DNA of 64,000 nucleotides from Reyranella sp. (lineage in GTDB: Bacteria > Pseudomonadota > Alphaproteobacteria > Reyranellales > Reyranellaceae), in assembly GCF_004296935.1 (NCBI RefSeq), contig NZ_SCVH01000097.1, positions 6,093 through 70,092 of the forward strand. The letters run 5' to 3'. Position numbers and translations under genes: made by a program. Shown here in pieces: positions 8,193 through 62,657 of the stretch (position 1 is its first letter; every line of letters begins with the position of its first letter). The notes under the pieces were generated by a model that saw nothing but the letters and a program-made list of their open reading frames with translations, was not told where the DNA came from and searched no databases.

Positions 8193-8202
8193 GGCAATCT
8201 CC

Positions 8203-44075: not shown

Positions 44076-44088
44076 CGGCCTGTCTCCC

Positions 44089-46979: not shown

Positions 46980-47963
46980 ATGCAGATCGGCGTCATCGGC
47001 CTCGGACGAATGGGCGGCAATATCGTGCGACGGCTGACCAGGGCGGGGCATTCCTGTGCGATCTTCGACGCCAATCCCGCGGCGGGCGCCGCATTGGCGG
47101 GCAATGGCGTCACCGTCGCGGGCTCGGTGCCGGCGCTGGTCGAGGCATTGGGATCCGGTTCGCGCACGGTGTGGGTGATGCTGCCGGCGGGAAAGATCAC
47201 CGAGGACACCATCGCCGAACTCGGCGCCTTGATGAAGAGTGGCGATGTCATCATCGACGGCGGCAACACCAACTTCAAAGACGATGTCCGCCGCGCGCGT
47301 GAGCTCGCACCCAAGGGCATAAAATATCTCGATATCGGTACGTCGGGCGGTGTCTGGGGCCTGGCGCGCGGCTATTGCCTGATGATCGGCGGCGACGCCG
47401 AGACGGTGACCCGTCTCGATCCGATCTTTGCCGCCCTTGCACCTGGCCTTGGCGACATCGAACGCACGGAAGGCCGCGAGAAACTCGATCCGCGCGCCGA
47501 GCGCGGCTACATCCATGCCGGGCCGGTGGGGGCGGGGCATTTCGTAAAAATGATCCATAACGGCATCGAGTACGGCATGATGCAGGCCTTCGCCGAGGGC
47601 TTCGACATCATGCGCCACCGCGCCGACGACAAGCTGCCGGCCGACGAGCGCTACGACCTCAACCTGGGCGACATTGCCGAAGTGTGGCGGCGCGGCAGCG
47701 TCGTGACTTCGTGGCTGCTCGACCTCACGGCCAGCGCGCTTGCCAAGGACGCGCACCTGGAAAGCTTCTCCGGCCACGTCGAGGACAGCGGCGAGGGCCG
47801 CTGGACGATCGAGGCGGCCATCGAGGAGGCGGTACCGGCGGACGTGCTGGCTGCGTCCCTGTTCGTGCGCTTCCGCTCGCGCCAGCAGCACACGTTTGCG
47901 GAAAAAGTTCTGTCGGCGATGCGGCTGGGCTTCGGTGGCCACGTCGAAGCCCCCAAGAAATAG
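46980..47963 (+). CDS. gnd: 6-phosphogluconate dehydrogenase, decarboxylating (short YqeC/GndA-like form)
   Basis: [31 protein letters not shown] and [20 protein letters not shown] motifs. Confidence 0.88.
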
Positions 47964-47971
47964 GAGTTTTC

Positions 47972-48817
47972 ATGCGCGTAGGTGTCTTCTACTTCCCGAC
48001 CGACTACGGCATCGACATCGCCGAACTCGCGCGTGCCCTCGAGGAGCGTGGCTTCGACTCGCTGTTCGTGCCCGAGCACACGCACATCCCCCTCAGCCGC
48101 AAGACACCCTTTCCAACGGGCGGCGAACTGCCCAAGCGCTATTCGCACACCCACGATCCGTTTGTCGGCCTCGCCTTCGCGGCGGCGGCAACCAGGAAGC
48201 TCAAGATCGGCACCGGCATCCTGTTGGTGCCCCAGCACGAGCCGATTGCCACGGCCAAGGCCATCGCCTCGCTCGACCAGCTCTCGGGCGGCCGCTTTGT
48301 CTTCGGCATCGGGGCTGGCTGGAACCAGGACGAGATGGAGAACCACGGCGTCGGCTACGCCACGCGCTACAAGCAGATGCGCGAACATGTGCTGGCGATG
48401 AAAGCGCTGTGGACCGAGGAGGCGGGGTCCTTCCACGGCGAGTTCGTGAACTTCGATCCGGCATGGTCGTGGCCCAAGCCCGCGCAGCGGCCGCATCCGC
48501 CGATCCTGCTGGGTGGAGAAACCGACCATACGCTGAAGCGCGTCGTCGACTATTGCGACGGCTGGTTCCCGCGCCCGCGCTCCGGCTTCGAGGCATCCAC
48601 CGCCGTCGATCGTTTGAAGCGTATGGCGGAGTCGGTGAAGCGCGATCCCGCGACACTCACGGTCACCGTATTCGGCGCACCGCCGGAAGCTGCTGCCCTG
48701 GCTGCTTACGAAAAAGCCGGGATTCCAAACGCCCTGTTGGCGATCCCCGACCTCGGCCGTGACGAGATCCTGCGCCATCTCGATACGATCGCGCCGCTGG
48801 CGAAAGCCCACGCATGA
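47972..48817 (+). CDS. LLM-class oxidoreductase, probably F420-dependent (Rv2161c-like)
   Basis: ERGFDSLFVPEHTHIP, SLDQLSGGRFVFGIGAGWNQDEMENHG and PHPPILLGG segments. Starts 9 nt after gnd. Paralogue of 49756..50607. Confidence 0.75.
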   Translation: MRVGVFYFPTDYGIDIAELARALEERGFDSLFVPEHTHIPLSRKTPFPTGGELPKRYSHTHDPFVGLAFAAAATRKLKIGTGILLVPQHEPIATAKAIASLDQLSGGRFVFGIGAGWNQDEMENHGVGYATRYKQMREHVLAMKALWTEEAGSFHGEFVNFDPAWSWPKPAQRPHPPILLGGETDHTLKRVVDYCDGWFPRPRSGFEASTAVDRLKRMAESVKRDPATLTVTVFGAPPEAAALAAYEKAGIPNALLAIPDLGRDEILRHLDTIAPLAKAHA

Positions 48818-49746
48818 AGGTCGCCGTCGGCCTCGGTCTGATGGAGTTTCCGTTTGCCGGGGCGGGCGACTACTGGCGCTGGGTCGATCTCTGCGAGGCG
48901 GGCGGTGTCGATTCCTTGTGGCAGACCGATCGGCTGGTCAGCCGCCAGCCGATCCTGGAATGCATGACGGCGGTGGCGGCCCTGGCCGGCCGCACGCGTC
49001 GGATGCGCTTCGGCATGAACGTGGTGTCGCTGGCGCTGCGCGATCCGGTGCTGCTGGCCAAGCAGTGCGCCACCGTCGATGTTCTCTCCGAGGGCCGTCT
49101 GCTGCCGGCCTTCGGTATCGGCAGCCCGCTCGGGCCGGAATGGCAGGCGCTCGACATCGATACAAAGACGCGTGGCCGCCGCACCGACGAAAGCTTGGAA
49201 ATCATCGCGCGGCTGTGGCGCGAGGAGAGCGTCGACTTCGCCGGCAAGTACTATCGCCTCTCGGGCGCGTCGATCTCGCCCCGGCCAGTACAGCCTGACC
49301 TCCCGATGTGGATCGGTGGTGCGTCGGATGCGGCGATCCGGCGAACGGCGCGTTACGGCACGGGCTGGCAGGGCGGCCCCGAGGGGCCGGCTGAAGCAGG
49401 CCGGGTCGTGGCCGCCATAAAGCTGGCCGCCGCCGAGGCCGGCCGTTCGATCGACGAGGATCATTACGGCGCGGCCTTTCCATTCTATTTCGGCAGTGCC
49501 TCCGACAGCGTCGTTTCAGGCGCCATGGCGGCCTATGCCAAGCGCACCAACCGCGATCCGGCGCGCTATTTCGCGATCGGCGACGAGACGGCGATCCTCG
49601 ACAGGGTTGCCGAGTATGTCGAGGTCGGCGTCCAGAAGTTCATCCTGCGGCCGGTGGGCGATGGCGCCAGCGTGCTCGCCCAGACGCGGCAACTGATCGA
49701 GAAAGTATTGCCGCGAGTCGGCGCGAAATGGCCGAAGGTAGCCTAG
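48814..49746 (+). CDS. LLM-class flavin/F420-dependent oxidoreductase
   Basis: Luciferase-like barrel pattern (VDSLWQTDRL, SEGRLLPAFGIG, MWIGGAS). ATGA overlap with the preceding gene. Confidence 0.7.
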   Translation: MKVAVGLGLMEFPFAGAGDYWRWVDLCEAGGVDSLWQTDRLVSRQPILECMTAVAALAGRTRRMRFGMNVVSLALRDPVLLAKQCATVDVLSEGRLLPAFGIGSPLGPEWQALDIDTKTRGRRTDESLEIIARLWREESVDFAGKYYRLSGASISPRPVQPDLPMWIGGASDAAIRRTARYGTGWQGGPEGPAEAGRVVAAIKLAAAEAGRSIDEDHYGAAFPFYFGSASDSVVSGAMAAYAKRTNRDPARYFAIGDETAILDRVAEYVEVGVQKFILRPVGDGASVLAQTRQLIEKVLPRVGAKWPKVA

Positions 49747-49755
49747 GAGGAAGCG

Positions 49756-50607
49756 ATGCACATCGGCGCGGCGATGTTCTTCACGGACTATTCCATGGCG
49801 CCCGGCGAACTCGGCAAGGCCCTGGAGGAGCGCGGCTTCGACTCGCTGTGGGCGCCCGAACATTCGCACATCCCGATGTCACGCAAGTCGCCCTTTCCGA
49901 GCGGCGGTGAGCTGCCGAAGAAATACTACGATGCGATGGACCCGTTCGTGACGCTGACCGCCGCGGCCGTCGCCACCAAGACCCTGAAGGTCGGCACCGG
50001 CATCTGCCTGATCGCCCAGCGCGATCCCATCCAGACGTCCAAGCAGGTCTCATCGATCGACCAGCTCTCCGGCGGGCGCTTCCTGTTCGGCGTCGGCAAT
50101 GGCTGGAACAGCGACGAGATGGAAAACCACGGCACCGTCTACAAGACCCGCCACAAGCTGGCGCGCGAGCGCATCGAGGCGATGAAGGAGATCTGGACCA
50201 AGTCCAAGGCCGAGTATCACGGCGAGCTGGTCAACTTCGATCCGATGATGAGCTGGCCCAAGCCGGTGCAGAAGCCCCATCCGCCGATCATCGTCGGTGG
50301 CGCCTTTCCCTATGGCGCGCGTCGGGCGCTGCGCTACGGCGACGGCTGGATGCCGCACCGCGTGCGCAAGACCTACGCCGACGTGAGTGCGCTGATCCCC
50401 AAGTTTCGCGAGATGGCCAAGGAAGCCGATCGCGACCCCGCTTCGGTGCCCGTCACCATCTGGGGCGCCAAGGAGGACGAGAGCCTGCTGAAGCGCGACC
50501 GCGACGACGGCGTAGAACGCATCATCGTCAGCCTCGATTCGGCCAAGGCCGACAAGATCCTTCCCGAACTCGACCGCTGGGCCAAGCTCCTGCGCGCGGT
50601 CGCCTAG
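49756..50607 (+). CDS. LLM-class oxidoreductase, probably F420-dependent (Rv2161c-like)
   Basis: Aligns by eye along its full length with 47972..48817 (ERGFDSLWAPEHSHIP, SIDQLSGGRFLFGVGNGWNSDEMENHG, PHPPIIVGG). Confidence 0.75.
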   Translation: MHIGAAMFFTDYSMAPGELGKALEERGFDSLWAPEHSHIPMSRKSPFPSGGELPKKYYDAMDPFVTLTAAAVATKTLKVGTGICLIAQRDPIQTSKQVSSIDQLSGGRFLFGVGNGWNSDEMENHGTVYKTRHKLARERIEAMKEIWTKSKAEYHGELVNFDPMMSWPKPVQKPHPPIIVGGAFPYGARRALRYGDGWMPHRVRKTYADVSALIPKFREMAKEADRDPASVPVTIWGAKEDESLLKRDRDDGVERIIVSLDSAKADKILPELDRWAKLLRAVA

Positions 50608-51557
50608 AGGAGCGGCAGCACCTCTTTCTTGAACTGCTGCATTTCGCCCAGCATCGCCTCGACGGTCGCGCCGCCAAAGCCGAAGTCGAGGCTGCCGACG
50701 CCCATGTCGCGGAGCGCCCGCATGTCGGCCGCGATCTCGGCCGGCTTGCCCGAGAACAGGCGCCGCTCGCCGTCACCGGCCTTGGGCGGGACCTTTTCGC
50801 CCAGTGCCGTGCAGCGGAAGGCAAGCCCCATGGCCTTGGGATCGCGCCCGGCCTCGGCCGTCATCTTGTGCAGGCGCGCGACCTGGGTCTTGAAGCGCGC
50901 CAGGCTGTCGAGCGGGTTGGCCGGGTTGGTGCCGATCGGATACCAGGCATCGCCGAGGCGCGCGGTGCGACGCAGCGCCGGCCCGCTTTCGCCGCCGACC
51001 CAGATCGGCGGATGGGGCTTCTGCACCGGCTTGTGCGAGAAGTCGATATTGTCGAAGGAGACATACTCGCCGGCAAAGCGCGGTCTCTCCTTGGTCCAGA
51101 GCTCGATGAAGGCCTTGATGTATTCGTCGGTGACCTTGCCGCGCTGGGTGAAATCGGGCGCGCCGATCGCCTCAAATTCCTCTTTTAGCCAGCCGACGCC
51201 GATGCCCACCGTCAGGCGGCCGCCCGACAGCACGTCGATAGTCGACAGCATCTTGGCGGTCAGGACCGCTGGGCGATGCGGCACCACCATCACCGAGGTC
51301 ACCAGCCTGAGGCGCGTCGTCTTGGCGGCGAGGAAGGCCACTTCGATCAGCTGCTCGTGGCGCTCGACGCGGGAACCGGCGGGGAATTCACCAGTTGCGC
51401 TGTAGGGATATTTTGCCTGGATATCGACCGGGATCACCACATGGTCGCTGAAGGTGGCGTAATCGAAGCCCAGCGCCTCGCCGGCTACCACCAGTCGCGT
51501 CAGGTGCTCGGGTGCCGCCAACAGCCCGGCGGTCGGCGCATTGAAGCCGATCAGCAT
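50604..51557 (-). CDS. LLM-class oxidoreductase, probably F420-dependent
   Basis: GFDYATFSDH, LSGGRLTVGIGVGWLKEEFEAIG and PHPPIWVGGES segments. Stop codon shares the CTAG tetranucleotide with the convergent gene. Confidence 0.75.
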   Translation of the reverse strand: MLIGFNAPTAGLLAAPEHLTRLVVAGEALGFDYATFSDHVVIPVDIQAKYPYSATGEFPAGSRVERHEQLIEVAFLAAKTTRLRLVTSVMVVPHRPAVLTAKMLSTIDVLSGGRLTVGIGVGWLKEEFEAIGAPDFTQRGKVTDEYIKAFIELWTKERPRFAGEYVSFDNIDFSHKPVQKPHPPIWVGGESGPALRRTARLGDAWYPIGTNPANPLDSLARFKTQVARLHKMTAEAGRDPKAMGLAFRCTALGEKVPPKAGDGERRLFSGKPAEIAADMRALRDMGVGSLDFGFGGATVEAMLGEMQQFKKEVLPLL

Positions 51558-51623
51558 CGTGTCATCCTCCCAATTGTGGCGGCCATACTACACGATGCGG
51601 TCGGAGGCGTTTGACGCTATGTT

Positions 51624-53969
51624 TTGCTCATGATGACGACGGGCGTTTCGTTGGCCGCATTGATGGCCGAGGCGGGCGAGCTGCGCGATCGCGGCCATGG
51701 CCGCTTGATTTCGTATTCGCGCAAGGTGTTCATTCCGCTCACCCACCTCTGCCGCGACGTCTGCCACTACTGCACCTTCGCTGAGCGGCCGCGCGCCGGT
51801 CAGCCGGCCTACCTCTCGCCCGACCAGGTTCTCGCCATCGCCCGCGCCGGCGCGGCCGCGGGCTGCACCGAGGCGCTGTTCACCCTGGGCGACAAGCCGG
51901 AGCTGCGCTACAGCGCGGCACGCGAGGCGCTGGCGGCGCTTGGTCACGAGACCACGATCGGCTACCTGACGGAAATGTGCGGCCGGGTGCTGCGCGAGAC
52001 CGGGTTGCTGCCGCATGCCAATCCCGGAGTCATGACGCGCGAGGAGATCGCGGGCCTGCGCGCGGTGACGGCGAGCCAGGGCATCATGCTCGAATCGACC
52101 AGCGAGCGGCTCTGCGAAAAAGGCGGCGTGCATTACGGCTCGCCCGACAAGCATCCGGCGGTACGGCTGGAGACCATCCGACTCGCGGGCGAACTGAAGG
52201 TGCCGTTCACCACCGGCATCCTGATCGGCATCGGCGAGACGCGCGACGAGCGTATGGAAGCGCTGACTGCCATTCGCGACCTGCATGCCGCGCACGGCCA
52301 CATCCAGGAAGTGATCGTCCAGAATTTCCGCGCCAAGCCCGACACCAAGTGGGCCGACGCCGACGAGCCCGATCTCCAGGACCTGCTGTGGACCATCGCC
52401 ATGGCCCGCAAGATTCTCGGGCCCGACATGAACCTCCAGGCGCCGCCCAATCTGTCGCCGGGCGTCTATCCGCGCCTGATTGCGGCGGGGCTGAACGACT
52501 GGGGCGGCATCTCGCCGGTGACGCCCGACCATGTGAACCCCGAAGCGCCGTGGCCTGCCATCGATGAACTGGCGCGGCGCAGCGCCGAACTGGGCAAGGT
52601 GTTGGTCAACCGCCTGCCGCTCTATCCCGCCTATGCCCGTGACCCCGACACCTGGCTTGCGCCCGAAGTCGCGACGCAGGTCCGGCGTATGAGCGACGCC
52701 GAGGGCCTCGCTCGCGACGACGACTGGTCGCCCGGCGAGACCACGCCGCCGCCCGCGCCGCGCGTCCTCGTGAGCGGCGTCGATTCCGCGATCGCTCGCG
52801 CCGTCGACCGCGCGACGTCGGGCGAGCGCCTCGATCCGCCGGAGATCGTGCGCTTGTTCGCGGCCCGCGACGCCGACTATCGCCACGTCACGGGCGCCGC
52901 CAATGCGCTGCGTCAGGCGGTCAGCGGCGAGGTCATACGCTACGTCGTCAACCGCAACATCAACTACACCAACATCTGTTATTTCCGCTGCAAGTTCTGC
53001 GCCTTCTCCAAGGGTCGCACGCACGAGGACCTGCGTGGCGCGCCCTACGATCTGGCGCTCGACGAAGTGAAGCGGCGCGCCGTAGAAGCCTGGGAGCGTG
53101 GCGCCACCGAAGTCTGCATGCAGGGCGGCATCCATCCCGACTATACGGGCGAGACCTATGTCGCGATCTGCAAGGCGATCAAGGAAGCGGTGCCGGGCAT
53201 GCACATCCACGCCTTCTCGGCGCTGGAAGTGACCCAGGGTGCGGCGACGCTGAAACAGCCCATTCCTGAATTCCTCGCCAGCCTGCAGCAGGCCGGCCTC
53301 GGCACCCTGCCGGGCACGGCGGCGGAAATCCTCGACGACGAGGTCCGCGCCATCATCTGCCCGGACAAGATCAACACCGCCGAGTGGCTGGGCGTGCAGC
53401 GCGCCGCGCACGGGCTCGGACTGCGCACGACTTCGACCATCATGTACGGCCACGTCGAGACGCCGCTTTCCTGGACGCGGCATCTGCTGGCGCTGCGCGA
53501 TTTGCAGAGCGAGACCGGCGGCTTCACCGAATTCGTGCCGCTGCCGTTCGTGCACATGGAAGCGCCGATGTACCGGCAGGGCCGCGCCCGCCGCGGGCCG
53601 ACCTTCCGCGAGGCGGTGATCATGCATTCCGTCGCGCGCCTGGCGCTGCACCCGGTGATCCCCAACATCCAGACCTCGTGGGTCAAGATGGGCCCGGCCG
53701 GTGCCGCGATCTGCCTGGAGGCGGGCGCCAACGATCTCGGCGGCACCCTGATGAACGAGAGCATCTCGCGCGCGGCCGGCACGCAGCATGGCCAGGAATT
53801 CCCGCCCGACGCCATGGAGGCGCTGATCCGCTCGATCGGCCGCACCCCGCAGCAGCGCGACACGCTCTATCGCACTGTCCCGGAGGAGCGCCGCGCGGCG
53901 TCGCTGGTCGCCGCCGACCTCGCGCCGCTCGTGCTTACGCCGCCCCGCAAGCGGGCCGCCGCGGCTTAG
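51624..53969 (+). CDS. fbiC: bifunctional FO synthase (7,8-didemethyl-8-hydroxy-5-deazariboflavin synthase, CofG+CofH fusion)
   Basis: 781 aa with two radical-SAM CxxxCxxC motifs (CRDVCHYCTF and CYFRCKFCAF), one in each half, as in FbiC. Confidence 0.92.
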   Translation: MLMMTTGVSLAALMAEAGELRDRGHGRLISYSRKVFIPLTHLCRDVCHYCTFAERPRAGQPAYLSPDQVLAIARAGAAAGCTEALFTLGDKPELRYSAAREALAALGHETTIGYLTEMCGRVLRETGLLPHANPGVMTREEIAGLRAVTASQGIMLESTSERLCEKGGVHYGSPDKHPAVRLETIRLAGELKVPFTTGILIGIGETRDERMEALTAIRDLHAAHGHIQEVIVQNFRAKPDTKWADADEPDLQDLLWTIAMARKILGPDMNLQAPPNLSPGVYPRLIAAGLNDWGGISPVTPDHVNPEAPWPAIDELARRSAELGKVLVNRLPLYPAYARDPDTWLAPEVATQVRRMSDAEGLARDDDWSPGETTPPPAPRVLVSGVDSAIARAVDRATSGERLDPPEIVRLFAARDADYRHVTGAANALRQAVSGEVIRYVVNRNINYTNICYFRCKFCAFSKGRTHEDLRGAPYDLALDEVKRRAVEAWERGATEVCMQGGIHPDYTGETYVAICKAIKEAVPGMHIHAFSALEVTQGAATLKQPIPEFLASLQQAGLGTLPGTAAEILDDEVRAIICPDKINTAEWLGVQRAAHGLGLRTTSTIMYGHVETPLSWTRHLLALRDLQSETGGFTEFVPLPFVHMEAPMYRQGRARRGPTFREAVIMHSVARLALHPVIPNIQTSWVKMGPAGAAICLEAGANDLGGTLMNESISRAAGTQHGQEFPPDAMEALIRSIGRTPQQRDTLYRTVPEERRAASLVAADLAPLVLTPPRKRAAAA

Positions 53970-53979
53970 GCCATTCGAA

Positions 53980-54008
53980 TTTGCAAGTTCAGCCGGTTTC
54001 GGCTATGT
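53980..54008 (+). promoter_or_regulatory. sigma70-type promoter of module B (TTGCAA-17 nt-TATGTT)
   Basis: Hexamers and 17-nt spacing are conserved with copy A. Confidence 0.5.
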
Positions 54009-54014
54009 TTTTCG

Positions 54015-54078
54015 CTATATTGGGCGCGCTGCGAGCCTGATGATCGAACGCCCGACGGATCCTTCCGCCGGGCGTTTT
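54015..54078 (+). ncRNA. candidate small RNA (about 64 nt) ending in an intrinsic terminator
   Basis: Terminator CGCCCG...CGGGCG with inner stem CGG/CCG, followed by TTTTT (54074-54078). Same predicted length as copy A, but the body sequence is diverged. Confidence 0.4.
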
Positions 54079-54277
54079 TCGTGGTCCACAAATGGTCCAC
54101 TTCGGCGATCTTTTTCAGACATTCATCCCGGCAAGCGGCGGGTGCCGGTGGCACAGTTTATCGGGGGGCGATTGCCCTGCGGGACCAAGGCCTTGAGGCT
54201 GGTTCATGGCACAGGTCGATGGACACGTCGTGGCACAACGAGGTGTGCCAGAAAATGGCCATTCCCGCCGTGCGCGC

Positions 54278-54964
54278 CTAGCCGATTCCCCGGTCCACCA
54301 GCAGTCGGGGGATGCCGGCCTCTTCGAGGAAGGCCCGCGTGCGGGTGCCGGCCGACTGCGGCAGGCGGAGGAAGGCGGCGAGGTCGGCGGGGTGGTCGAT
54401 GTCCATGGCAATACCCGGCTGGCGGATCACCGTCGGCTCGATGCCCGCGCGCCGCGCCGCCTCGAGATGCGGGAAGTAGCTGTTCTCGCCGAAACGCAGC
54501 GGCACGGCATCCGGTGGCGAGCAGATGACGGCGTTGGAGCCGAGATCGTCATGCGCCGGCGAGATGGTGAAGGAGGGAGCGCGAAGATGCGACGCCAGCA
54601 CCGCGTCGATCTCGGCCGAAGTAGCGGCGGGAATGTCGCCGGGAAGCGTGATCATGCCGCCGCGACCTTCGCGGGCGAGCAGGCGGAGGCCTGCCGTGAC
54701 GCTGCCGGTGTGGCCGTCGCGGGCGCCGTCGGTCACCACGCGCGCGCCGAGGCGCGAGGCCAGCGCCGTCGTCTGCGGGTCGAGGGTGACGACCATGATG
54801 CCGGCGAGGCCGCGCGCGCCGGCCACGGCGTCCAGTACCTCGCCCACCATGACTTCGATTAGCGCGCGGCGCTGGGCGGGTGAGAGCAGGGGGGCGAGCC
54901 GCTGCTTGGCGCCATCCAGTTCCTTGACGGGCACGACCGCCCAGATGTCGGCCGACGCGCTCAC
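54278..54964 (-). CDS. cofC: 2-phospho-L-lactate / phosphoenolpyruvate guanylyltransferase (F420 biosynthesis)
   Basis: IWAVVPVKELDGAKQRL N-terminus and MITLPGDIP motif of CofC/FbiD. GTG start at 54964 overlaps the cofD stop (GTGA). It is the last gene of the fgd-cofE-cofD-cofC operon. Confidence 0.85.
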   Translation of the reverse strand: MSASADIWAVVPVKELDGAKQRLAPLLSPAQRRALIEVMVGEVLDAVAGARGLAGIMVVTLDPQTTALASRLGARVVTDGARDGHTGSVTAGLRLLAREGRGGMITLPGDIPAATSAEIDAVLASHLRAPSFTISPAHDDLGSNAVICSPPDAVPLRFGENSYFPHLEAARRAGIEPTVIRQPGIAMDIDHPADLAAFLRLPQSAGTRTRAFLEEAGIPRLLVDRGIG

Positions 54965-55893
54965 GTGAGCGAATCGGCGAAGGCGAGAACGGTGCGTGCC
55001 AGCGCTTCGCGGTCGGCGAGCGTCGTCATCAGGGTGGGGGCGACGTGCAATTTGGCGCCGATGTCTCCTGAATCGGCGGCATCGACGACATAGCCGTCGA
55101 GCAAACCGTCGTAGCGCCCGGCCGCGGCGGCGGAACTCACGGGCAGGCCGAGTTCCTGCATCATCTTCGCCGTCGGTCCCTTGACCGCGCGGCCGCCGAC
55201 GATCGGCGACACCGCCACGACAGGGGCGCCGCAATTCTCGATCGCCGCGCGCATCCCGGGCACGGCCAGGATCGGCTCGATGCTGATGAAGGGGTTGGAC
55301 GGGCAGATCATCACCGCCCGCACCTTGCCGCTGCCCAGGGCTGCCATGACGTCGGGCTGGAGCCGGGCGTCGGCCGCGCCGGTGAAGGCGAGTTCCTGCA
55401 CGACAGGGCGGCACTGCTGGCGCACGAAATAGTCCTGGAAGTCGATCCAGCCGCTGTCGCTGCGCACACGCGTGCGCACGCGATCGTCGCTCATCGGCAG
55501 CACGCGCGGGCCGACGCCGAGCCGCCGGCACACGTCGGCAGTGATCTGCGACAGGGTCTGGCCGGCGCCGAGCCGCTTCGTCCGCTCGACATGCAGCGCG
55601 AGGTCGCGATCGCCGAGGCGGAACCAATCCTCGCCGCCCAGGGCGGTGATCGTCTCCATGAACGACCAGGTCTCGTCGCGACGGCCCCAACCGGTGACCG
55701 GATTGTCGAGGCCGGCCAGCACGTAGGTGAGCGTGTCGATGTCCGGGCAGATGCTGAGGCCGAGATGCTCGAAATCATCGCCGGTGTTGGCCACGACCAG
55801 CAACTCGTCCGCCGGCAGCACGCGGCTGAGGCCAAGCACCAGCTTGGCACCACCGACGCCGCCCGACAGGGCAACCACCAGGCTTTTGCTCAC
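54961..55893 (-). CDS. cofD: 2-phospho-L-lactate transferase (F420 biosynthesis)
   Basis: VVALSGGVGGAKLVLGL, NTGDDFEHLGL and WFRLGDRD motifs of CofD/FbiA. Confidence 0.9.
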   Translation of the reverse strand: MSKSLVVALSGGVGGAKLVLGLSRVLPADELLVVANTGDDFEHLGLSICPDIDTLTYVLAGLDNPVTGWGRRDETWSFMETITALGGEDWFRLGDRDLALHVERTKRLGAGQTLSQITADVCRRLGVGPRVLPMSDDRVRTRVRSDSGWIDFQDYFVRQQCRPVVQELAFTGAADARLQPDVMAALGSGKVRAVMICPSNPFISIEPILAVPGMRAAIENCGAPVVAVSPIVGGRAVKGPTAKMMQELGLPVSSAAAAGRYDGLLDGYVVDAADSGDIGAKLHVAPTLMTTLADREALARTVLAFADSLT

Positions 55894-56663
55894 CGAAACA
55901 TGTCCTCGGCGGCCGGCCGCACGAGTTCGGAGGCGGGATTGGCGGGCGCGCTCCAGGTAAGGCCGCGCATCAGCACGACGGGCTGCGCTTCGTTGCCTTG
56001 CCCCATTACGAGGGACGCCGCGGCCGCGATCTCGTCGGCGAAGCCGGTGATGCTGACCTGCAGTTCACGGCCGAACAGATCGGGATTGCCGCGCAGGTCG
56101 AGGAGCGCCGGCAGGCCCGCCGCGCCGATCGCCACACCGGCCGTGCCGCGCCGCCACGCCCGGCCGAAGCTGTCGGTGATGACGACCGCAAGCGGCACGC
56201 CGCAAAGCGAGGTGAGGCGGGCGCGCAGTTTGGCGGCGCTGCCGTCGGGATCGACCGGCAGCAGCAGCGCGCGCTGCGGGCCGTCCGGCGAAGCGACATT
56301 GGATTGATCGACGCCGGCATTGGCCATGACGAAACCAAGCTTGTGCTCGACGATCAGGACATTGGGCCGGGACCGCACCACGCGGACCGACTCCGACAGG
56401 ATCAGCTCGACCAGGCGCGGATCCTTCTGCACTTCCTTGGCGAGCTCAACGGCCCGCGCCGATGGCTTCACCGTGGCGAGATCGACGCTGCGGCCTTCGG
56501 CCTTGGAGACGACTTTCTGGGCGATCACGATTACGTCGCCCTTGCGTGGCGCAAGGTTGCCGCGCGCGAATCCTTCGGCGATCAGGGCCGCCAGATCGTC
56601 ACCCGGCGCGATCAGGGGGATGCCGGGGACCGCCAGGATCTCCAAGGCGGTGGTGCGGCTCAT
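55890..56663 (-). CDS. cofE: coenzyme F420-0:L-glutamate ligase, single-domain form
   Basis: 257 aa. [26 protein letters not shown] and [11 protein letters not shown] motifs of CofE. No C-terminal nitroreductase-like domain. Confidence 0.9.
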
Positions 56664-57664
56664 CCGAACTTCTTGCGTAGACGCGGCAGCACCTGCTCGC
56701 CGTAGAGCTTCAGGAACCGCTCCTGATCGGGGCCCGGCGCGTGGAAAACGAGATGACGGAAGCCGAGAGTGACGTAGGCGCCGATCTTTTCGACATGCTC
56801 GTCGGGGTCGCTCGACACGATCCAGCGCGACGCCGTGCGCTCGAGCGGCAGCGCGTCGGCCAGACGCTGCATCTCGACGGGATCCTCGACCGACATCTTC
56901 TCGTCGCCCGTCAGTGCCAGCGCCGCCCAGTGCCGTGTATCCTGCAGCGCGCGCTCGGCGTCGGTGTCGAAGGAGACCTTGACCTCGATCATGTGGTCAT
57001 ACGGCTGTACGCGCGGTTCGGCAGCGGCGAGACCCTCGGCGACCTTGGGCAACAATGTTTCGGTATAGAGTTCGCGCTTCTTGCCGCTGGTGCAGATGAA
57101 GCCGTCGCCGGAGCGACCGGCGTAGCGCGCTACCAGCGCGCCGGCCGCCGCCACGTAGATCGGCACCTCGACCTCGGGCCGGTCGTAGATGGTGGCCTTT
57201 TCGGTCTTGTAGTATTCGCCCTCGAAGCTGATGCGTTCCCCGCGCCACAGCGTGCGGATCAGGGTCACCGCCTCGCGCATCCGGGCGAAGCGTTCCTTGA
57301 ACTCGGGCCAGGGCTGGCCGGTCGACGGCACTTCGTTCAGCGATTCGCCGGTGCCGATGCCCAGGACGACCCGTCCCGGGAACATCGCGCCCAGCGTGCC
57401 GAAGGCCTGTGCCACGATAGAAGGATGGTAACGGAAGGTGGGCGTGAGCACGCTGGTGCCGATCACGATCCGCGAGGTCCGGGCACCCAGCGCACCGAGC
57501 CAGGCGAGCGAGTAGGGCGCGTGGCCATCGACGTGCTTCCACGGCTGGAAGTGATCGCTGACGAACACCGATTCGAAACCCACGTTTTCCGCCAGGCAGG
57601 CGAAATCGAGCAGTTTTGCCGGCGCGAATTGTTCCGCCGATGCCTTGTATCCGAGCTTTATCAT
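56660..57664 (-). CDS. fgd: F420-dependent glucose-6-phosphate dehydrogenase
   Basis: [13 protein letters not shown]...[20 protein letters not shown]...[20 protein letters not shown]...[11 protein letters not shown] closely follows the mycobacterial Fgd1 sequence as I remember it. Confidence 0.88.
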
Positions 57665-57772
57665 GGCGCCAGACTACCCGATCCGGCGCTTCAAGCCAGC
57701 CGCGCCGTTCCGCTGGCCAGTCCGGTAACCTTGGCCTAGCGTGTCGGCAACAAGAGTCTTGAGGAGGAAATA

Positions 57773-58669
57773 ATGCAGCTCGGTGCATCTTTACCGGTCG
57801 GCGACATCGGGACCGGTCCGGCGGTCCTGCGCGACTATGCGCAGGCGGCGGAGGGCCTGGGCTACGATTATCTCGTGGCGCCCGACCACGTGCTGGGCGG
57901 CAATCCCAACGTCGACCATGGCGGCCGCCGCGTCGGCACCACCGCCACGGCCTATCATGATCCCTTCGTGCTGTTCGCCTTCCTGGCCGGCGTCACCCCC
58001 AAGATCGGCTTTGCCGCTGGGGTGTTGATCCTGGCCCAGCGCCAGGCGGCGCTGGTGGCCAAGCAGGCGGCCTGCCTGGACGAACTTTGCGAAGGGCGGT
58101 TCCGTCTCGGCGTCGGTGTCGGCTGGAACGAGATCGAGTTCCAGGGATTGGGCGAGGATTTCAAGACGCGCGGCAAGCGCTCCGAGGAACAGGTGCGCTT
58201 CATGCAGGCGCTGTGGAAGGAGCCGCACGTCAAGTTCAAGGGCGAATTCCACCAGCTCGACGACGGCGGCATCAATCCGCGCCCGAAGTCTGGTCGTGTG
58301 CCGATCTGGTTCGGTGGCCATGCCGAGGCGACGTTCCGGCGCGCGGCCAAATACGGCGACGGCTTCATGCCGCTCGCCTATCCAGCGGGGGACGAGGCGC
58401 TGAAAGCCTTCGACAAGCTGCGCACTCTGATCAAAGCGGCAGGGCGCGACCCCAAGTCGGTCGGGCTCGAAGTCTGGGTGTCGCCCGGCATTGGAAACGA
58501 GGACGATTGGCGAAAGGAATTCAGCTTCTGGAAGAAAGCGGGCGTCACGCACGTCAATGCGCACACGACCTACGTCAGCGCGCATCACAAGCGCATCGCG
58601 GGCAAGAGCTACGATGACCACCTGACGGCGATCACACGCTATCGTGCTGCCGTCGCGGACCTGCTGTGA
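57773..58669 (+). CDS. LLM-class oxidoreductase, probably F420-dependent
   Basis: LGYDYLVAPDH, GRFRLGVGVGWNEIEFQGLG and RVPIWFGGHAE segments. Same subfamily look as 50604..51557 and 58666..59547. Confidence 0.75.
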   Translation: MQLGASLPVGDIGTGPAVLRDYAQAAEGLGYDYLVAPDHVLGGNPNVDHGGRRVGTTATAYHDPFVLFAFLAGVTPKIGFAAGVLILAQRQAALVAKQAACLDELCEGRFRLGVGVGWNEIEFQGLGEDFKTRGKRSEEQVRFMQALWKEPHVKFKGEFHQLDDGGINPRPKSGRVPIWFGGHAEATFRRAAKYGDGFMPLAYPAGDEALKAFDKLRTLIKAAGRDPKSVGLEVWVSPGIGNEDDWRKEFSFWKKAGVTHVNAHTTYVSAHHKRIAGKSYDDHLTAITRYRAAVADLL

Positions 58670-59547
58670 TGAAATTCGCCCTGCATTTCGGCAACAACAC
58701 TTGTCCGGACCTGGCCGCGGCGCACCGGCTGGTGCGCCTGGCAGAAGCCGCCGGTTTCGATTCGGTCTTCGCCGTGGATCATGTCGTCCTGCCCGACACC
58801 TACAGCTCGACCTACCCCTATGCGGCCAGCGGCCGCCTGCCGGGCGATCGCACGGCATCGATTCCCGATCCATTGATCTGGATGGCATCGGTCGCGGCCG
58901 TCACGACCCGGCTGCGCTTCATGACCGGCGTGCTCATCCTGCCGCAGCGCAATCCGCTGGTCCTGGCCAAGCAGGTCGCGACGCTCGACCATTTGAGCGG
59001 CGGGCGCATCGAACTCGGCATCGGCGTCGGCTGGCTGAAGGAGGAATTCGAGGCGCTCGGCGTGCCGTTCGAGAAGCGCGGCAAGCGGGCCGACGAATAT
59101 ATCGCGGCGATGCGGGCACTGTGGGCGGCCGATGGCGCGAGCTACGCCGGCGAGTTCGTGAAGTTCCATGAGGTGAGTTGCAACCCCAAGCCGGTGGCGG
59201 GCAGCGTGCCGATCATCGTCGGCGGCCATTCCGAGGCCGCCGCCCGGCGGGCCGGCCGTCTCGGCAACGGCTTCTTCCCATCGATCGGCCGGCCAGTCGA
59301 CACCATGCCTCTGATCGATGTCGCCCGTCGCGCTGCGGAGGCAGCGGGCCGCGATCCCGCGGCGATCGAGATGCTTGCCGGCTGTCCCGATCTCCTGCCC
59401 GGCTCGGGCAAGGATGCGGAGGCGGCCATCAAGGAACGGGTGGCGCAGGGCATCGGCCGCATCGTGCTGCCTTCCACCCCTTTCATGCACGATCTCGAGG
59501 AGAGCCTCGCGCGCTTCGGTGAAAAGGTCATCCGCCCCTTCAGCTAG
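58666..59547 (+). CDS. LLM-class oxidoreductase, probably F420-dependent
   Basis: GFDSVFAVDH, LSGGRIELGIGVGWLKEEFEALG and SVPIIVGGHSE segments. Start is GTG 58666 or ATG 58669, overlapping the upstream stop. Confidence 0.75.
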   Translation: MMKFALHFGNNTCPDLAAAHRLVRLAEAAGFDSVFAVDHVVLPDTYSSTYPYAASGRLPGDRTASIPDPLIWMASVAAVTTRLRFMTGVLILPQRNPLVLAKQVATLDHLSGGRIELGIGVGWLKEEFEALGVPFEKRGKRADEYIAAMRALWAADGASYAGEFVKFHEVSCNPKPVAGSVPIIVGGHSEAAARRAGRLGNGFFPSIGRPVDTMPLIDVARRAAEAAGRDPAAIEMLAGCPDLLPGSGKDAEAAIKERVAQGIGRIVLPSTPFMHDLEESLARFGEKVIRPFS

Positions 59548-60611
59548 GCAAAGGCCTTTCGGATGTGGGCCCAGTCGGCGAGAGCCGCTTCCTGGCCCGG
59601 CACGAGCTGGATCGTGAATTGGGTGTAGCCGGCGCCGCGCAGTGCCTCGATGCGTTGCTTGATCTCGCCTTCGGTCGCGGTGAACGAGGTGGCACGGATC
59701 AGGTCAGCGGTGACGAACTTCTTTTCCGCGGGCTTCACGAACATCAGATGTCCGCGATGGTTTTCCAGATAGGGAGCATCCTTGGGCTCATAGGTCCGCG
59801 CCAGAGCGACATAGCCCTCCAGTTCCGGCCGCTGCGCGAGCAGGGCCTGGGTCGGCTTCATGTTCAGGAGCGCCTCGTCGGCGGCACGATGCAGCATCAC
59901 CGCCGCGCGCGGTCCTGCCTGCGCCATGGCGCGCTCGGAGTCGGCCGGTTCGCCATCCTGCAGCACGCAGCCCAGTGCAAAGGCCGTGGCCTGCAAGTCA
60001 CCCATCGCGTGTCCGGCCTTGCCCCAGTCCTCGCGCATCGCCACGACCTCGCGAACACCGGCCTCGACGTTGCCGACAAAGTCGATCCAGCCGGCCTTCA
60101 GCCGCGCCGTGAGGGCTCGCGTGCGTGGTCCGAAAGCCGAGAGGTGTAGTGCGATCGGGTCGCCCGTGTTGAACAAGTCGAGTTCGGGATTGAGGAAGCG
60201 GATCTTGCGGCTCTGGCCTTCCATCTCGAAGTCGACGGTCTTGCCTGCCAGCAGACCATAGACCTGATGGATATAGGCCTCCATGTCCTTGATCTTGATG
60301 GCGCCGAAGCCCATGGCGCGCCGCGCGGTGAAGCCGGTGCCGACGCCGAAATCGATGCGGCCCGGCGCCAGGCTGTTGAGCGTCGCCAGCGCATTGGCGG
60401 CAACCGGCGCGATGCGGTTGGAGGGCACCAGCACCCCCGTGCCGAGACGGATGCGCTTCGTGTTGACGGCGGCGGCGCCCATGGCGACGAAGCAGTCGGC
60501 GCTCAGCATCTGGGTGTCGTAGAACCAGGCGTGGGTGAAACCAAGTTCCTCGGCGCGTTTCGCCTGCTTCCAGGAATCCGCCGCGGTGGGGAGCGCGATG
60601 CCGAAATCCAT
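59544..60611 (-). CDS. LLM-class flavin/F420-dependent oxidoreductase
   Basis: MDFGIALPT, LGFTHAWFYDTQ and APGRIDFGVGTGF segments. Stop shares CTAG with the convergent gene. Confidence 0.72.
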   Translation of the reverse strand: MDFGIALPTAADSWKQAKRAEELGFTHAWFYDTQMLSADCFVAMGAAAVNTKRIRLGTGVLVPSNRIAPVAANALATLNSLAPGRIDFGVGTGFTARRAMGFGAIKIKDMEAYIHQVYGLLAGKTVDFEMEGQSRKIRFLNPELDLFNTGDPIALHLSAFGPRTRALTARLKAGWIDFVGNVEAGVREVVAMREDWGKAGHAMGDLQATAFALGCVLQDGEPADSERAMAQAGPRAAVMLHRAADEALLNMKPTQALLAQRPELEGYVALARTYEPKDAPYLENHRGHLMFVKPAEKKFVTADLIRATSFTATEGEIKQRIEALRGAGYTQFTIQLVPGQEAALADWAHIRKAFA

Positions 60612-60622
60612 CGTCTTCTCCC

Positions 60623-61483
60623 TCAGGTGTCAGCGAGGGCTGCGAGCATGCGGTCGCGCGCGGCGAAATCCCCGTCGTCGTGAACCGGCTGCAGGCAGAC
60701 GTGGGTGGCGCCGGCCTCGAAATGCGCCCGGAGGCCCTTCTTGATCGTGGCTGCGTCGCCCCACAGGACCATCGAGTCGATGAAGCGGTCGCTGCCGCCA
60801 TCAGCGAGTTCGGCCTCGCTGAAACCCTCGCGCAGCCAGTTGTTGCGGTAGTTCGGGAGCACCATGTAGCGCGCCAGTTCCTTGCGGCCGAGCGCGCGGG
60901 CGCGGACGGGATCGGTCTCCAGCGTGACCTTCTGCTCGACGGCGAGCATCTTCTTCGGGCCCAGGATGGCGGCGGCCTTCGCCGTGTGCTTGGGCGTCAC
61001 GTTGTAGGGCACGGCGCCCAGTGACTTCTCGGCGCTGAGCGCCAGCATCTTGGGCCCCAGCGCCGCCACCATCACCGGCGCTTCCTCGCCGGCGGGCAGG
61101 CCCTTGTGGATGCCCTCGAGATAGGCGCGCATGGCGCCGAGCGGCTTGTCGTAGCGATGGCCGCGCAATCCCTCGACCATCGGGATGTGGCTGACGCCGA
61201 GGCCCAAGATGAAACGGCCGCCGTACAGGTTGTTCAGCGACACCATGGCCCGCTGCGCCGTGAAGGGATCGCGGGCGTAGATGTTGGCAATCGAGCTGCC
61301 GATGGTGAGGCGCGTACTCTTCGACAGGAGATAGGCCGCCAGCGACATCGATTCGTAGCCGCGCGATTCGGGATACCAGAACGCCGAATAGCCACCGCTT
61401 TCGATGACACGCATCAGGTCGGTAAGCTGGCCCCCGTTTAGCTTGTCCGTCGAATACCAGACTCCCAGGCGTCCCAACTTCAT
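60623..61483 (-). CDS. LLM-class oxidoreductase, probably F420-dependent
   Basis: LGRLGVWYSTDKL, GYSAFWYPES and GGRFILGLGVSH segments. Confidence 0.72.
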   Translation of the reverse strand: MKLGRLGVWYSTDKLNGGQLTDLMRVIESGGYSAFWYPESRGYESMSLAAYLLSKSTRLTIGSSIANIYARDPFTAQRAMVSLNNLYGGRFILGLGVSHIPMVEGLRGHRYDKPLGAMRAYLEGIHKGLPAGEEAPVMVAALGPKMLALSAEKSLGAVPYNVTPKHTAKAAAILGPKKMLAVEQKVTLETDPVRARALGRKELARYMVLPNYRNNWLREGFSEAELADGGSDRFIDSMVLWGDAATIKKGLRAHFEAGATHVCLQPVHDDGDFAARDRMLAALADT

Positions 61484-62550
61484 GGCTTGGCTCCGTCGGA
61501 TTGAATGTCTTTGGCGAGGCTGCGCAGAATTTCCCGGTCGGCATCATTTCTGACGGGAATCGAGAACTCGCAATGGGTGACGACACGGCCGAACCGGTCC
61601 AGCAGCTTGCGCGCGATCGTGTCGTAGGTGCCGATGGTGACGAATGTCTCGAGGATGTCGTCGTTGATGTGCTGCGGCAGCTCTTCCCAGCGCTGGGCAC
61701 GCGACAGGAGTTTCAGCCGGTCGGCAAGATCGCCGAGGCCGAGATGGTCGAAGGCGGCACGGTACTGCGGTGTCGAGGCGTAGAAGGCGATGCGTGCCCG
61801 CACGTCGCGAATCTTGGGGGCGAGCTCCGCTTCGTTCGCGGCCGTGGCGACCAGCGGCTTCATGCTGATCTGGAAGCCTTTTAGCGAGCGGCCGGTCTTG
61901 GCGGCGCCAGCGCGGACAGCCGGCATCATCACCTTCTCGATGTAGGATGGCGTGCAGACCGGGTGCGGGCGGATGCCGTTGGCCACTTCACCCGAGACCT
62001 GGCACATCACGGCGTTGACGGCCGCGATCTGTATCGGAATCTGCGGATGCTCGATCGGGCCGGGATTGAACAGCGGCACCATGAGATTGATGTTGTAGTG
62101 CTCGCCCTTGACGTCGAGCGGCGTGCCGTTCTGCCAGTTGTCCCACACCGCCCGCACGGCATGGACATACTCACGCATCCACGGTCCGGCCGGCGTCCAG
62201 GGCATGCCATAGCGGCGCTCGATGTGGGCTTTCACCTGCGTGCCGAGGCCGAGCGTGAAGCGGCCGTGCGACAGTTTCTGGACCGTCCAGGCGCTGAGCG
62301 CCGTCACAGTGGGACTGCGCGGAAAGGCGATGGCGACCGAGGTGCCGAGCTTCAGCTTGCGCGTCGCCTGGGCCGCCAGCGCCATGACGATGAACGGGTC
62401 GTCCTTGGTCTCCTCGACGACCAGCCCGTCGTAGCCAATGTCTTCCAGCAGGCGCGCATTCTCGCCGATGCTGTGCAGGTCGAAGGGCACTTCCGGTGCG
62501 CGAAGACCGGGATCGACCTTGCCGAGAGGCAGAAGAGTTTCTAACAGCAC
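61480..62550 (-). CDS. LLM-class oxidoreductase, probably F420-dependent
   Basis: GYDGLVVEETKDDPF and GRFTLGLGTQVKAHIERRYG segments. Its stop (61480-61482) overlaps the downstream start in a 4-nt ATGA. Confidence 0.72.
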   Translation of the reverse strand: MLLETLLPLGKVDPGLRAPEVPFDLHSIGENARLLEDIGYDGLVVEETKDDPFIVMALAAQATRKLKLGTSVAIAFPRSPTVTALSAWTVQKLSHGRFTLGLGTQVKAHIERRYGMPWTPAGPWMREYVHAVRAVWDNWQNGTPLDVKGEHYNINLMVPLFNPGPIEHPQIPIQIAAVNAVMCQVSGEVANGIRPHPVCTPSYIEKVMMPAVRAGAAKTGRSLKGFQISMKPLVATAANEAELAPKIRDVRARIAFYASTPQYRAAFDHLGLGDLADRLKLLSRAQRWEELPQHINDDILETFVTIGTYDTIARKLLDRFGRVVTHCEFSIPVRNDADREILRSLAKDIQSDGAKP

Positions 62551-62657
62551 GTGTCTGCTCGATGATGGATGGGTTTTCTCGCGGGCCGGCAGCCTAGCAC
62601 CGGAAGGTGTGCGGGCAAGCTGCCTCGTCCCGCGGTGCGAGCCGGAAAGGAAAGACG

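Follow-up and report, generated by a model that had tools for sequence, protein, structure and literature searches.

A 16-kb block (46980-63206) of a 64,000-nucleotide stretch of DNA from Reyranella sp., a soil alphaproteobacterium (contig NZ_SCVH01000097.1; the whole stretch is referred to here as the window) contains all genes for the synthesis and recharging of the cofactor F420 together with nine luciferase-like (LLM) genes, designated LLM1 to LLM9. We consider it likely, at odds of roughly three to one, that this island lies in the chromosome, has been maintained vertically, and is an alphaproteobacterial F420 module of the type built on the glucose-6-phosphate dehydrogenase that depends on F420 (Fgd), with four functional layers, namely, cofactor synthesis, recharging, carbon drain, and use. 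Ten of the 16 consecutive genes encode the LLM fold (the nine LLMs and fgd), and this density, together with gene-for-gene conservation in other genomes, places the arrangement far beyond chance. The cluster type is known and widespread in Alphaproteobacteria, and the window carries an unusually dense copy of it, the richest in LLMs among Fgd-type forms.

The island was mapped without gaps by combining open reading frame listings, frame-specific GC content at third codon positions (GC3), and profile searches against Pfam and NCBIfam (Table 1), with LLM calls based on Pfam PF00296 (Bac_luciferase; cut-off, 27.9 bits). All nine LLM reading frames match this profile at 100-210 bits, and they surround fbiC and the fgd-cofE-cofD-cofC operon. 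A first-pass annotation of the bare sequence had described just such a swarm of nine and likened it to a self-contained F420 island of putative F420-dependent enzymes in an alphaproteobacterial background; this description holds. FbiC, CofC, CofD, CofE, and, for regeneration, Fgd are all encoded within the same 16 kb. That annotation did not mention the 6-phosphogluconate dehydrogenase gene (gnd) to the left of the swarm or the gluconokinase gene (gntK) to its right.

The four biosynthetic enzymes (FbiC, CofC, CofD, and CofE) all score above curated equivalog cut-offs. CofE is a 257-residue protein that the TIGR01916 match spans from residue 7 to the last, 257, and it does not contain the nitroreductase-like domain found at the C terminus of mycobacterial FbiB. 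No nitroreductase-family or FbiE-like gene was detected among the window genes scanned, and the fused or free nitroreductase-fold reductase that marks the actinobacterial Fbi-type variant, which uses phosphoenolpyruvate (PEP) and passes through dehydro-F420, is thus not found among them. The nearest solved structure to CofC by sequence is the Mycetohabitans protein (7P97; 102.6 bits, versus 71.2 bits for Mycobacterium tuberculosis FbiD), an enzyme that activates 3-phosphoglycerate. Synthesis of 3PG-F420, the form derived from this compound (3-PG), is diagnosed by Ser at CofC position 162 (Gly163 in M. tuberculosis FbiD) and His at position 145 (PMC8764529). The window CofC differs from the Mycetohabitans protein at both, having Gly (in the motif RFGENS) and Leu, respectively, and given these residues it is probably of the 2-phospho-L-lactate (2-PL)/PEP type, predicted to yield classical F420 from 2-PL or PEP rather than from 3-PG. 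The choice between 2-PL and PEP as the in vivo substrate of alphaproteobacterial CofC, as well as the bacterial source of 2-PL, is unsettled in the literature (PMC8498797, PMC8764529).

Fgd is 61.8% identical (476 bits) to Rhodococcus jostii Fgd1 (PDB 5LXE), and its equivalog score, catalytic residues, and phosphate pocket agree in placing it in the Fgd family. Residues H40, W44, and E109 (catalytic) and K198, K259, and R283 (phosphate binding), in M. tuberculosis numbering, are invariant in all 80 orthologues examined, and the phosphate-binding role of the latter three is experimentally supported (PMC5352752). Within this alphaproteobacterial clade, Met occupies the position of M. tuberculosis H260 in 73 of the 80 sequences and Ala that of G177 in 78, and the island Fgd likewise carries neither the His260 nor the Gly177 of actinobacterial FGD; Gly177 separates FGD from FSD, with Ser at this position in sugar-6-phosphate dehydrogenases (PMC6279831). 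Among representatives clustered at 50% identity, Fgd amounts to essentially a single full-length sequence (P0121; 63% identity).

The LLMs were placed by their NCBIfam matches. An F420-named family is the best match for all nine and an FMN family for none; seven of them pass the cut-off of such a family (five for TIGR03619, one for TIGR03620, and one for TIGR03617). As a control, an LLM outside the island (12395-13492, 35 kb away) has an FMN-type best match. The paralogues are diverse: LLM1 and LLM3, recognized as close from the start, are the closest pair (50% identity over 283 residues), and the other pairs share 23-45%. LLM4, LLM5, and LLM6 have in common a motif first read as GVGVGW..EF...G, the actual form of which is G(I/V)GVGW..(E)EF...G (strings VGIGVGWLKEEFEAIG, LGVGVGWNEIEFQGLG, and LGIGVGWLKEEFEALG, respectively). 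The remaining four, considered mutually distinct at first reading, indeed fall apart: LLM2 lies under the TIGR03854 and TIGR03619 cut-offs, LLM7 is unclassified, LLM8 belongs to TIGR03620, and LLM9 belongs to TIGR03617. Among structures in the PDB, the sequences of LLM8 and LLM9 match F420-dependent Mer only, 10 of the 11 matches of LLM7 are F420 enzymes (Mer, Fgd, Adf, and fHMAD), and the best match of LLM2 is F420-dependent Mer (8QQ8). Family naming and gene neighborhood suggest that the six TIGR03619-like proteins (LLM1 to LLM6) may use F420.

Conservation of the cluster was assessed by scanning species-representative genomes for Fgd, taking the best 80 loci (L001 to L080), and mapping the window genes onto them by tblastn. 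All 80 loci are alphaproteobacterial. Fgd identity reaches 95% in a RIFCSP Alphaproteobacteria metagenome-assembled genome (MAG), 82-93% in Reyranella MAGs and species, and about 85% in Bradyrhizobium; further loci come from Enhydrobacter, Vineibacter, Caldovatus, Roseomonas, and Dankookia. Orthologous clusters in the same order, with 70-97% identity, occur in Reyranellaceae, Bradyrhizobium, Acetobacteraceae-type genera, and others, which runs against the exceptionality that the first-pass annotation had implied, the cluster type being conserved in several alphaproteobacterial families. A conserved core consisting of LLM8-(LLM5)-fgd-cofE-cofD-cofC, a convergent fbiC, a divergent LLM4, and LLM3-LLM2 is found in Bradyrhizobium, Vineibacter, Roseomonas, Caldovatus, and Dankookia. 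LLM4 and fbiC are neighbors in 40 of 42 loci, and the position directly upstream of fgd is taken by an LLM in 49 of 72. In the 29 loci with full ±10-kb flanks, 1-9 LLM genes (fgd left out of the count) occur within ±10 kb of fgd, most commonly four (7 loci) and then seven (6 loci), and orthologues of LLM3, LLM5, and LLM8 are present in 21, 18, and 24 of these loci, respectively; LLM2 has orthologues in Bradyrhizobium.

At the island edges, the gnd gene is syntenic in L008, L009, L016, L017, L020, and L022, and gntK adjoins LLM9 in L005, L007, and L008. In several Reyranella-like genomes (L013, L014, L016, L017, L019, L020, and L022), gntK is instead directly adjacent to fgd and divergent from it, so that the LLM5-LLM9 block looks like an insertion in the lineage of the window. 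Full synteny of all 16 genes, from gnd to gntK, is seen in L008, a Reyranella massiliensis MAG. This locus also has an additional LLM, with an FMN-type family as its top NCBIfam match, and an alpha/beta hydrolase gene between LLM5 and fgd (7820-9855 of the locus), for a total of ten LLMs plus fgd, and its fgd has a GTG start and a different promoter region. Rearranged loci are found in Enhydrobacter and some Reyranella genomes (L018, L051, L069, L070, L073, and L075), where fgd-cofE is followed directly by LLM3-LLM2-LLM1-gnd-LLM8-LLM7 and the cofD-cofC-fbiC-LLM4 block is gone from the locus as a unit.

Based on these gene identities and their conserved order, we hypothesize that the layers of the island would work together as follows. 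FbiC would produce FO, CofC and CofD would add the phospho-lactyl linker to give F420-0, and the single-domain CofE would add the glutamate tail. Fgd would then recharge the cofactor by transferring a hydride from glucose-6-phosphate to F420, the Gnd-like enzyme would decarboxylate the 6-phosphogluconate so formed, and GntK could feed gluconate into the same pool. Since gnd and gntK flank the Fgd island, the module may possess a private oxidative pentose-phosphate branch that would yield F420H2 instead of NADPH. The F420H2 would be spent by the nine LLMs, acting as hydride transferases that presumably work in the direction of reduction; this consumer set would comprise six TIGR03619-type enzymes, one TIGR03620 enzyme, one TIGR03617 enzyme, and one unclassified, Mer-like enzyme. 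As the island contains no substrate-defining gene, the substrates of the LLMs cannot be inferred from it.

Several points weigh against this interpretation. LLM2 and LLM7 fall under every NCBIfam family cut-off, and we take TIGR03619, TIGR03620, and TIGR03617 to owe their F420 label to phylogenetic profiling and not to enzymology; in the literature on the function of Rv2161c and these three families, we found no characterized member. In a Foldseek search, the AlphaFold (AF2) model of LLM4 (pLDDT, 88.5) is nearest to the FMN-dependent enzymes SfnG, MsuD, and SsuD, and F420 enzymes appear only at ranks 45-50, with similar TM-scores. PEP as the in vivo substrate would require a reductase domain, which neither CofE nor, as an FbiE-like gene, the window appears to supply, and no 6-phosphogluconolactonase gene was found in the island. 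The H260M and G177A changes mean that the sugar-phosphate preference or the mechanism of Fgd may differ from that of actinobacterial Fgd. Codon usage in the island is slightly offset from that in the rest of the window (root mean square difference in relative synonymous codon usage of 0.203, where random partitions give 0.130 ± 0.031; p = 0.023). Finally, F420 was present only in trace amounts in both alphaproteobacteria tested (PMC8498797).

The structural ranking of LLM4 raises the alternative that LLM1 to LLM6 act as two-component monooxygenases dependent on FMNH2, like SsuD and SfnG, and stand beside F420 genes for historical reasons, not using F420 themselves. In the Foldseek list, SfnG (8T0U), MsuD (7K64 and 7JV3), SsuD, and RutA come first, ahead of Mer, Fgd, and Adf; SfnG is also the third-best NCBIfam match for LLM4 (105.5 bits) and LLM6 (103.4 bits), and the PDB sequence matches of LLM1 and LLM2 are split between FMN and F420 enzymes. 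According to Mascotti et al., the cofactor used by such LLM clades has to be established by experiment (PMC8518648), and their two papers give no sequence signature that splits F420-binding from FMN-binding LLMs. We nevertheless regard this alternative as unlikely. The TIGR03619 scores (238-269 bits) exceed those for SfnG more than twofold, and the island contains no gene for a flavin reductase partner such as msuE, which adjoins sfnG in Burkholderia. The linkage to F420 genes is kept in dozens of genomes spanning several families and recurs independently on Croceicoccus and Sinorhizobium plasmids, where an LLM lies beside cofC or cofH, and the remaining relatives come from the F420-producing taxa Actinomycetota and haloarchaea. 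Further, the F420-dependent Type C clade is documented to have branched off SsuD-like FMN enzymes (PMC8518648), so that structural closeness to SsuD is no argument against F420 and the FMN-nearest model of LLM4 does not contradict F420 use.

A different role has to be weighed for one core LLM, with LLM4 as the prime candidate, namely, that of an F420 biosynthetic step rather than a cofactor user. LLM4 would then reduce dehydro-F420-0 or convert PEP to 2-PL, replacing the FbiB C-terminal domain or the FbiE reductase. The single-domain CofE, the missing nitroreductase family among the scanned genes, the predicted 2-PL/PEP type of CofC, and the unsettled 2-PL source and CofC substrate (PMC8498797, PMC8764529) would leave room for such an enzyme, and both the near-constant adjacency of LLM4 to fbiC and the joint loss of cofD, cofC, fbiC, and LLM4 from Enhydrobacter-type loci would fit it. 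Inherited gene order alone could explain the adjacency, however, and LLMs are not known to perform such chemistry. Because clusters regenerating F420 through NADPH:F420 oxidoreductase (Fno type) have the same single-domain CofE and no LLM4 orthologue (best match, 39% identity), with zero LLMs in the Aromatoleum plasmid cluster, we rate this role for LLM4 as very improbable, whether as the reductase or as the source of 2-PL, and we rejected LLM4 as a universal missing biosynthetic step. If it were true, LLM4 would supply the saturated lactyl linker and fill the long-missing "CofB-like" step for Alphaproteobacteria.

Base composition and phylogeny bear on the vertical maintenance of the F420 module. 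GC content is 0.668 inside the island and 0.667 outside it, GC3 is 0.846 versus 0.858, and the window is uniformly GC-rich (0.64-0.71 per 2 kb). Of the comparison with the flanks that the first-pass annotation had proposed, the GC part thus gives no sign of recent import, and only the small codon usage offset remains as a difference. No tRNA genes, Rfam matches, mobile-element genes (integrase or transposase), or repeat boundary were found; the features of a recent genomic island are therefore lacking, and every close relative sampled has the cluster. The alphaproteobacterial background of the window is evident from genes for PhyR (37845-38657, minus strand), a PAS-HisKA_2 kinase (41586-42692, plus strand), and a TctC receptor, as well as from the Fgd loci, the closest of which, in Reyranella and related MAGs, show 88-95% identity.

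A neighbor-joining tree was built with Bradyrhizobium and Roseomonas orthologues, actinobacterial and archaeal homologues taken from plasmid records only, and SfnG as the outgroup. In this tree, the deep nodes of which are without resolution, LLM6 falls together with plasmid proteins of Rhodococcus and Mycobacterium branderi (86% bootstrap), LLM1 and LLM3 form a clade (99%) whose sister is a Tsukamurella protein (100%), and LLM2, LLM4, and LLM5 stand in separate orthogroups, each with its Bradyrhizobium counterparts. Given these separate orthogroups and sister proteins, the paralogues, at 23-50% identity, appear to be old and accreted from distinct lineages rather than the product of a recent tandem amplification, the LLM1/LLM3 duplication excepted. 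According to the literature, actinobacteria are the most likely source of F420 genes in Gram-negative bacteria (PMC8764529), and the placement of the island fits an ancient transfer of this kind, which our sampling cannot prove. Recent horizontal import from Actinobacteria, as a mobile genomic island in an alphaproteobacterial chromosome, is very unlikely: although the literature favors an actinobacterial source, Fgd is close to Rhodococcus Fgd1, the sister proteins of LLM6 and of the LLM1/LLM3 clade are actinobacterial, codon usage is slightly offset, and 68 plasmids carry clusters with FbiC (18 of these plasmids are conjugative, and one cluster, on an Aromatoleum EbN1 plasmid, is flanked by insertion sequence [IS] elements), the island equals its flanks in GC and GC3, has no mobile-element traces, and has same-order orthologous clusters across several lineages, so that any transfer must be older than these lineages, with the best 80 Fgd loci alphaproteobacterial without exception.

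Table 1. Features of the F420 island in the window, with the profile scores supporting each assignment
Feature	Coordinates	Strand	Evidence or context
gnd-like decarboxylating 6-phosphogluconate dehydrogenase	46980-47963	+	NF007161 461 bits (cut-off 271); TIGR00872 374 (cut-off 297); Pfam NAD_binding_2 and 6PGD
LLM1, TIGR03619 family	47972-48817	+	TIGR03619 268.8 bits (cut-off 166.9); PF00296 186.5
LLM2, just under family cut-offs	48814-49746	+	TIGR03854 183.2 bits (cut-off 295.6); TIGR03619 161.2 (cut-off 166.9)
LLM3, TIGR03619 family, core member	49756-50607	+	TIGR03619 256.3 bits (cut-off 166.9)
LLM4, TIGR03619 family, divergent to fbiC	50604-51557	-	TIGR03619 238 bits (cut-off 166.9)
Conserved non-coding 16-nt element ATACTACACGATGCGG	51585-51600	.	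LLM4/fbiC divergent gap
fbiC, CofG-CofH fusion FO synthase	51624-53969	+	NF006687 1133.2 bits (cut-off 1018); TIGR03550 and TIGR03551 domains
Non-coding convergent fbiC/cofC spacer, 308 bp	53970-54277	.	Terminator-like hairpins; no coding GC3 signal in any frame
cofC (fbiD), guanylyltransferase	54278-54964	-	TIGR03552 135.8 bits (cut-off 105); PF01983 72 bits; GTG start
cofD (fbiA), 2-phospho-L-lactate transferase	54961-55893	-	TIGR01819 299.6 bits (cut-off 257.45)
cofE, F420-0:gamma-glutamyl ligase, single-domain	55890-56663	-	TIGR01916 283.9 bits (cut-off 180.65)
fgd, LLM-fold	56660-57664	-	TIGR03554 503.9 bits (cut-off 420)
LLM5, TIGR03619 family, divergent to fgd	57773-58669	+	TIGR03619 244.5 bits (cut-off 166.9)
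LLM6, TIGR03619 family	58666-59547	+	TIGR03619 265.9 bits (cut-off 166.9)
LLM7, unclassified, Mer-like	59544-60611	-	PF00296 100.7 bits; best NCBIfam TIGR03842 86.4, under cut-off
LLM8, TIGR03620 (MSMEG_4141) family, core member	60623-61483	-	TIGR03620 277.6 bits (cut-off 219.8)
LLM9, TIGR03617 (MSMEG_2256) family	61480-62550	-	TIGR03617 363.2 bits (cut-off 278.15)
gntK gluconokinase, divergent to LLM9, right island edge	62607-63206	+	TIGR01313 182 bits (cut-off 113.75)

The genes of the island are tightly packed. Start/stop overlaps of 4 nt, noted in the first reading as numerous, join six same-strand pairs (LLM1/LLM2, LLM5/LLM6, LLM9/LLM8, fgd/cofE, cofE/cofD, and cofD/cofC, the last through the GTG start of cofC). 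Two convergent pairs share 4-nt stop/stop overlaps, LLM3/LLM4 at 50604-50607 and LLM6/LLM7 at 59544-59547, and in both a single palindromic CTAG provides overlapping TAG stops on the opposite strands. There are about seven transcription units, started from three divergent promoter gaps, and profile searches found no regulator, transporter, or flavin reductase gene between 46980 and 63206, in line with the earlier remark that neither a regulator nor a transporter is interleaved. The largest non-coding stretch is the fbiC/cofC spacer, which has a hairpin at 53991-54004 followed by a T-run and no Rfam match. The left edge of the conserved island is formed by gnd, which opens a gnd-LLM1-LLM2-LLM3 unit. 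A D-2-hydroxyacid dehydrogenase gene to the left of gnd (45775-46848), considered as a 2-PL-related member of the island, is missing from every related locus, and the island therefore begins at gnd.

The element ATACTACACGATGCGG is kept in Reyranella, Bradyrhizobium, Vineibacter, Caldovatus, and Roseomonas loci, and the DNA around it is not. It is probably a promoter or operator serving LLM4. A copy with three mismatches, AGACTACCCGATCCGG, is located at 57671-57686, upstream of the fgd start by 6 nt. On the minus strand, the first contains TAGTAT and the second TAGTCT, and both are probably -10-type promoter elements on that strand, judging from these hexamers. Consensus promoter scans gave nothing informative. 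A shared operator for the divergent gaps was also considered and is the less probable reading: the regions upstream of fgd vary among relatives, and both copies are -10-like on the minus strand.

Elsewhere in the window, the LLM gene used above as a control lies on the minus strand and is the eleventh luciferase-like gene; its best NCBIfam matches are TIGR04027, MsnO8, and LuxA, all under the cut-off, and it adjoins a gene for a family-5 solute-binding protein (10625-12268). Just to the left of the island and not conserved with it are a GMC oxidoreductase gene (44089-45738, minus strand), which scores 570 bits as choline dehydrogenase-like (cut-off, 605) and 331 bits, under the cut-off, as mycofactocin MftG, and an adjoining gene (42984-44105, minus strand) with weak similarity to a polyhydroxyalkanoate depolymerase domain. 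PhyR, an anti-anti-sigma response regulator, and the PAS-HisKA_2 kinase constitute an alphaproteobacterial general stress response module. At 6149-9411 (minus strand), genes for a DUF993 protein (610 bits), a xylose isomerase-like TIM-barrel protein, and a GFO/IDH/MocA oxidoreductase follow one another, apparently as a catabolic trio of the sugar or inositol type, with genes for a mandelate racemase family enzyme and an amidohydrolase upstream.

The window and its Reyranella and Bradyrhizobium orthologues offer a compact, co-located set of ten candidate F420 enzymes, among which the conserved core members LLM8, LLM5, LLM4, LLM3, and LLM2 are targets for cloning and screening. They also link an Fgd-type cluster, through gnd and gntK, to 6-phosphogluconate metabolism, with which it may be coupled. 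These results refine current views without overturning them, adding new targets to a known picture. F420 has been detected in the alphaproteobacteria Oligotropha carboxidovorans and Paracoccus denitrificans, and Fgd has been predicted in alphaproteobacterial producers, with genes for Fgd and luciferase-like hydride transferases (LLHTs) beside the biosynthesis genes (PMC8498797). The physiological role of F420 in these bacteria is unknown, none of their F420 enzymes has been studied, and the reason why Proteobacteria make the cofactor is an acknowledged open question (PMC8498797).

The closest known systems are these alphaproteobacterial clusters, which, like the window, have an FbiC fusion, free-standing CofC, CofD, and CofE, an Fgd reductase, and neighboring LLHT genes (Ney et al. 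2017, summarized in PMC8498797); the Bradyrhizobium loci show the same gene order at 70-86% identity. The window differs from them in its nine LLMs, at the top of the range of 1-9, and in its gnd and gntK edges. More distant are the Fno-type clusters of plasmids and chromids, complete or near-complete F420 biosynthesis clusters with npdG that we examined in Aromatoleum aromaticum EbN1 plasmid 2 (L092), Sinorhizobium meliloti pSymA (L093), and the Croceicoccus marinus megaplasmid pCME4A9I (L091). They share with the window an FbiC fusion (59-64% identity), a single-domain CofE, a CofC with Gly at the 3-PG-diagnostic site, and, in some cases, a TIGR03619 LLM beside cofC or cofH. Unlike the window, they are plasmid-borne (the Aromatoleum cluster lies on a conjugative plasmid and is ringed by IS elements), regenerate F420 with NADPH:F420 oxidoreductase (npdG) rather than Fgd, contain 0-2 LLMs, and have no LLM4 orthologue. 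Their genes run fbiC-npdG-cofE-cofD-cofC collinearly in Aromatoleum and Croceicoccus, and npdG is accompanied by cofD-cofC-cofH in pSymA; the Croceicoccus cluster lies among Rieske, SDR, NTF2, and limonene-epoxide hydrolase genes and three more LLMs. There are therefore two proteobacterial F420 architectures, the Fgd type and the Fno type.

The mycobacterial F420 system, with its large LLHT and FDOR families, resembles the window in its FbiC fusion, in the catalytic and phosphate-binding residues of Fgd (62% identity), and in having multiple LLM paralogues of the same NCBIfam subfamilies, which are named after Rv2161c, MSMEG_4141, and MSMEG_2256. By comparison, the window CofE does not have the FbiB C-terminal nitroreductase domain, its Fgd carries H260M and G177A, and the island has no FDOR or split beta-barrel users. 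In M. tuberculosis, fbiC, fbiAB, fbiD, and fgd1 are dispersed, and we take this to set that species apart from the window, where the F420 genes are clustered. Judging from M. tuberculosis, the fusion of cofactor users to synthesis genes, at first thought typical of actinobacteria, is a proteobacterial trait more than an actinobacterial one.

The 3PG-F420 pathway of Mycetohabitans (Paraburkholderia) rhizoxinica provides the solved CofC most similar to that of the window and has a free-standing CofE as well. The window differs from it in the replacement of CofC Ser162 by Gly and His145 by Leu (PMC8764529), and, in contrast to its ten LLM-fold genes, no F420-dependent enzymes are known in Mycetohabitans (PMC8498797). 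Lastly, the Type C TIM-barrel F420 reductases (Apd6 enzymes such as LmbY and HrmD) are an F420-dependent LLM clade that branched off SsuD-like FMN enzymes, and, like the LLM4 model with its SfnG, MsuD, and SsuD neighbors, they are close to SsuD-type FMN enzymes (PMC8518648). Unlike the LLMs of the window, Type C enzymes are reported to be exclusively actinobacterial and tied to secondary-metabolite clusters (PMC8518648). The window suggests an F420 link outside Actinobacteria for the TIGR03619-type LLMs, whose nearest structural neighbors are sulfonate monooxygenases dependent on FMN.

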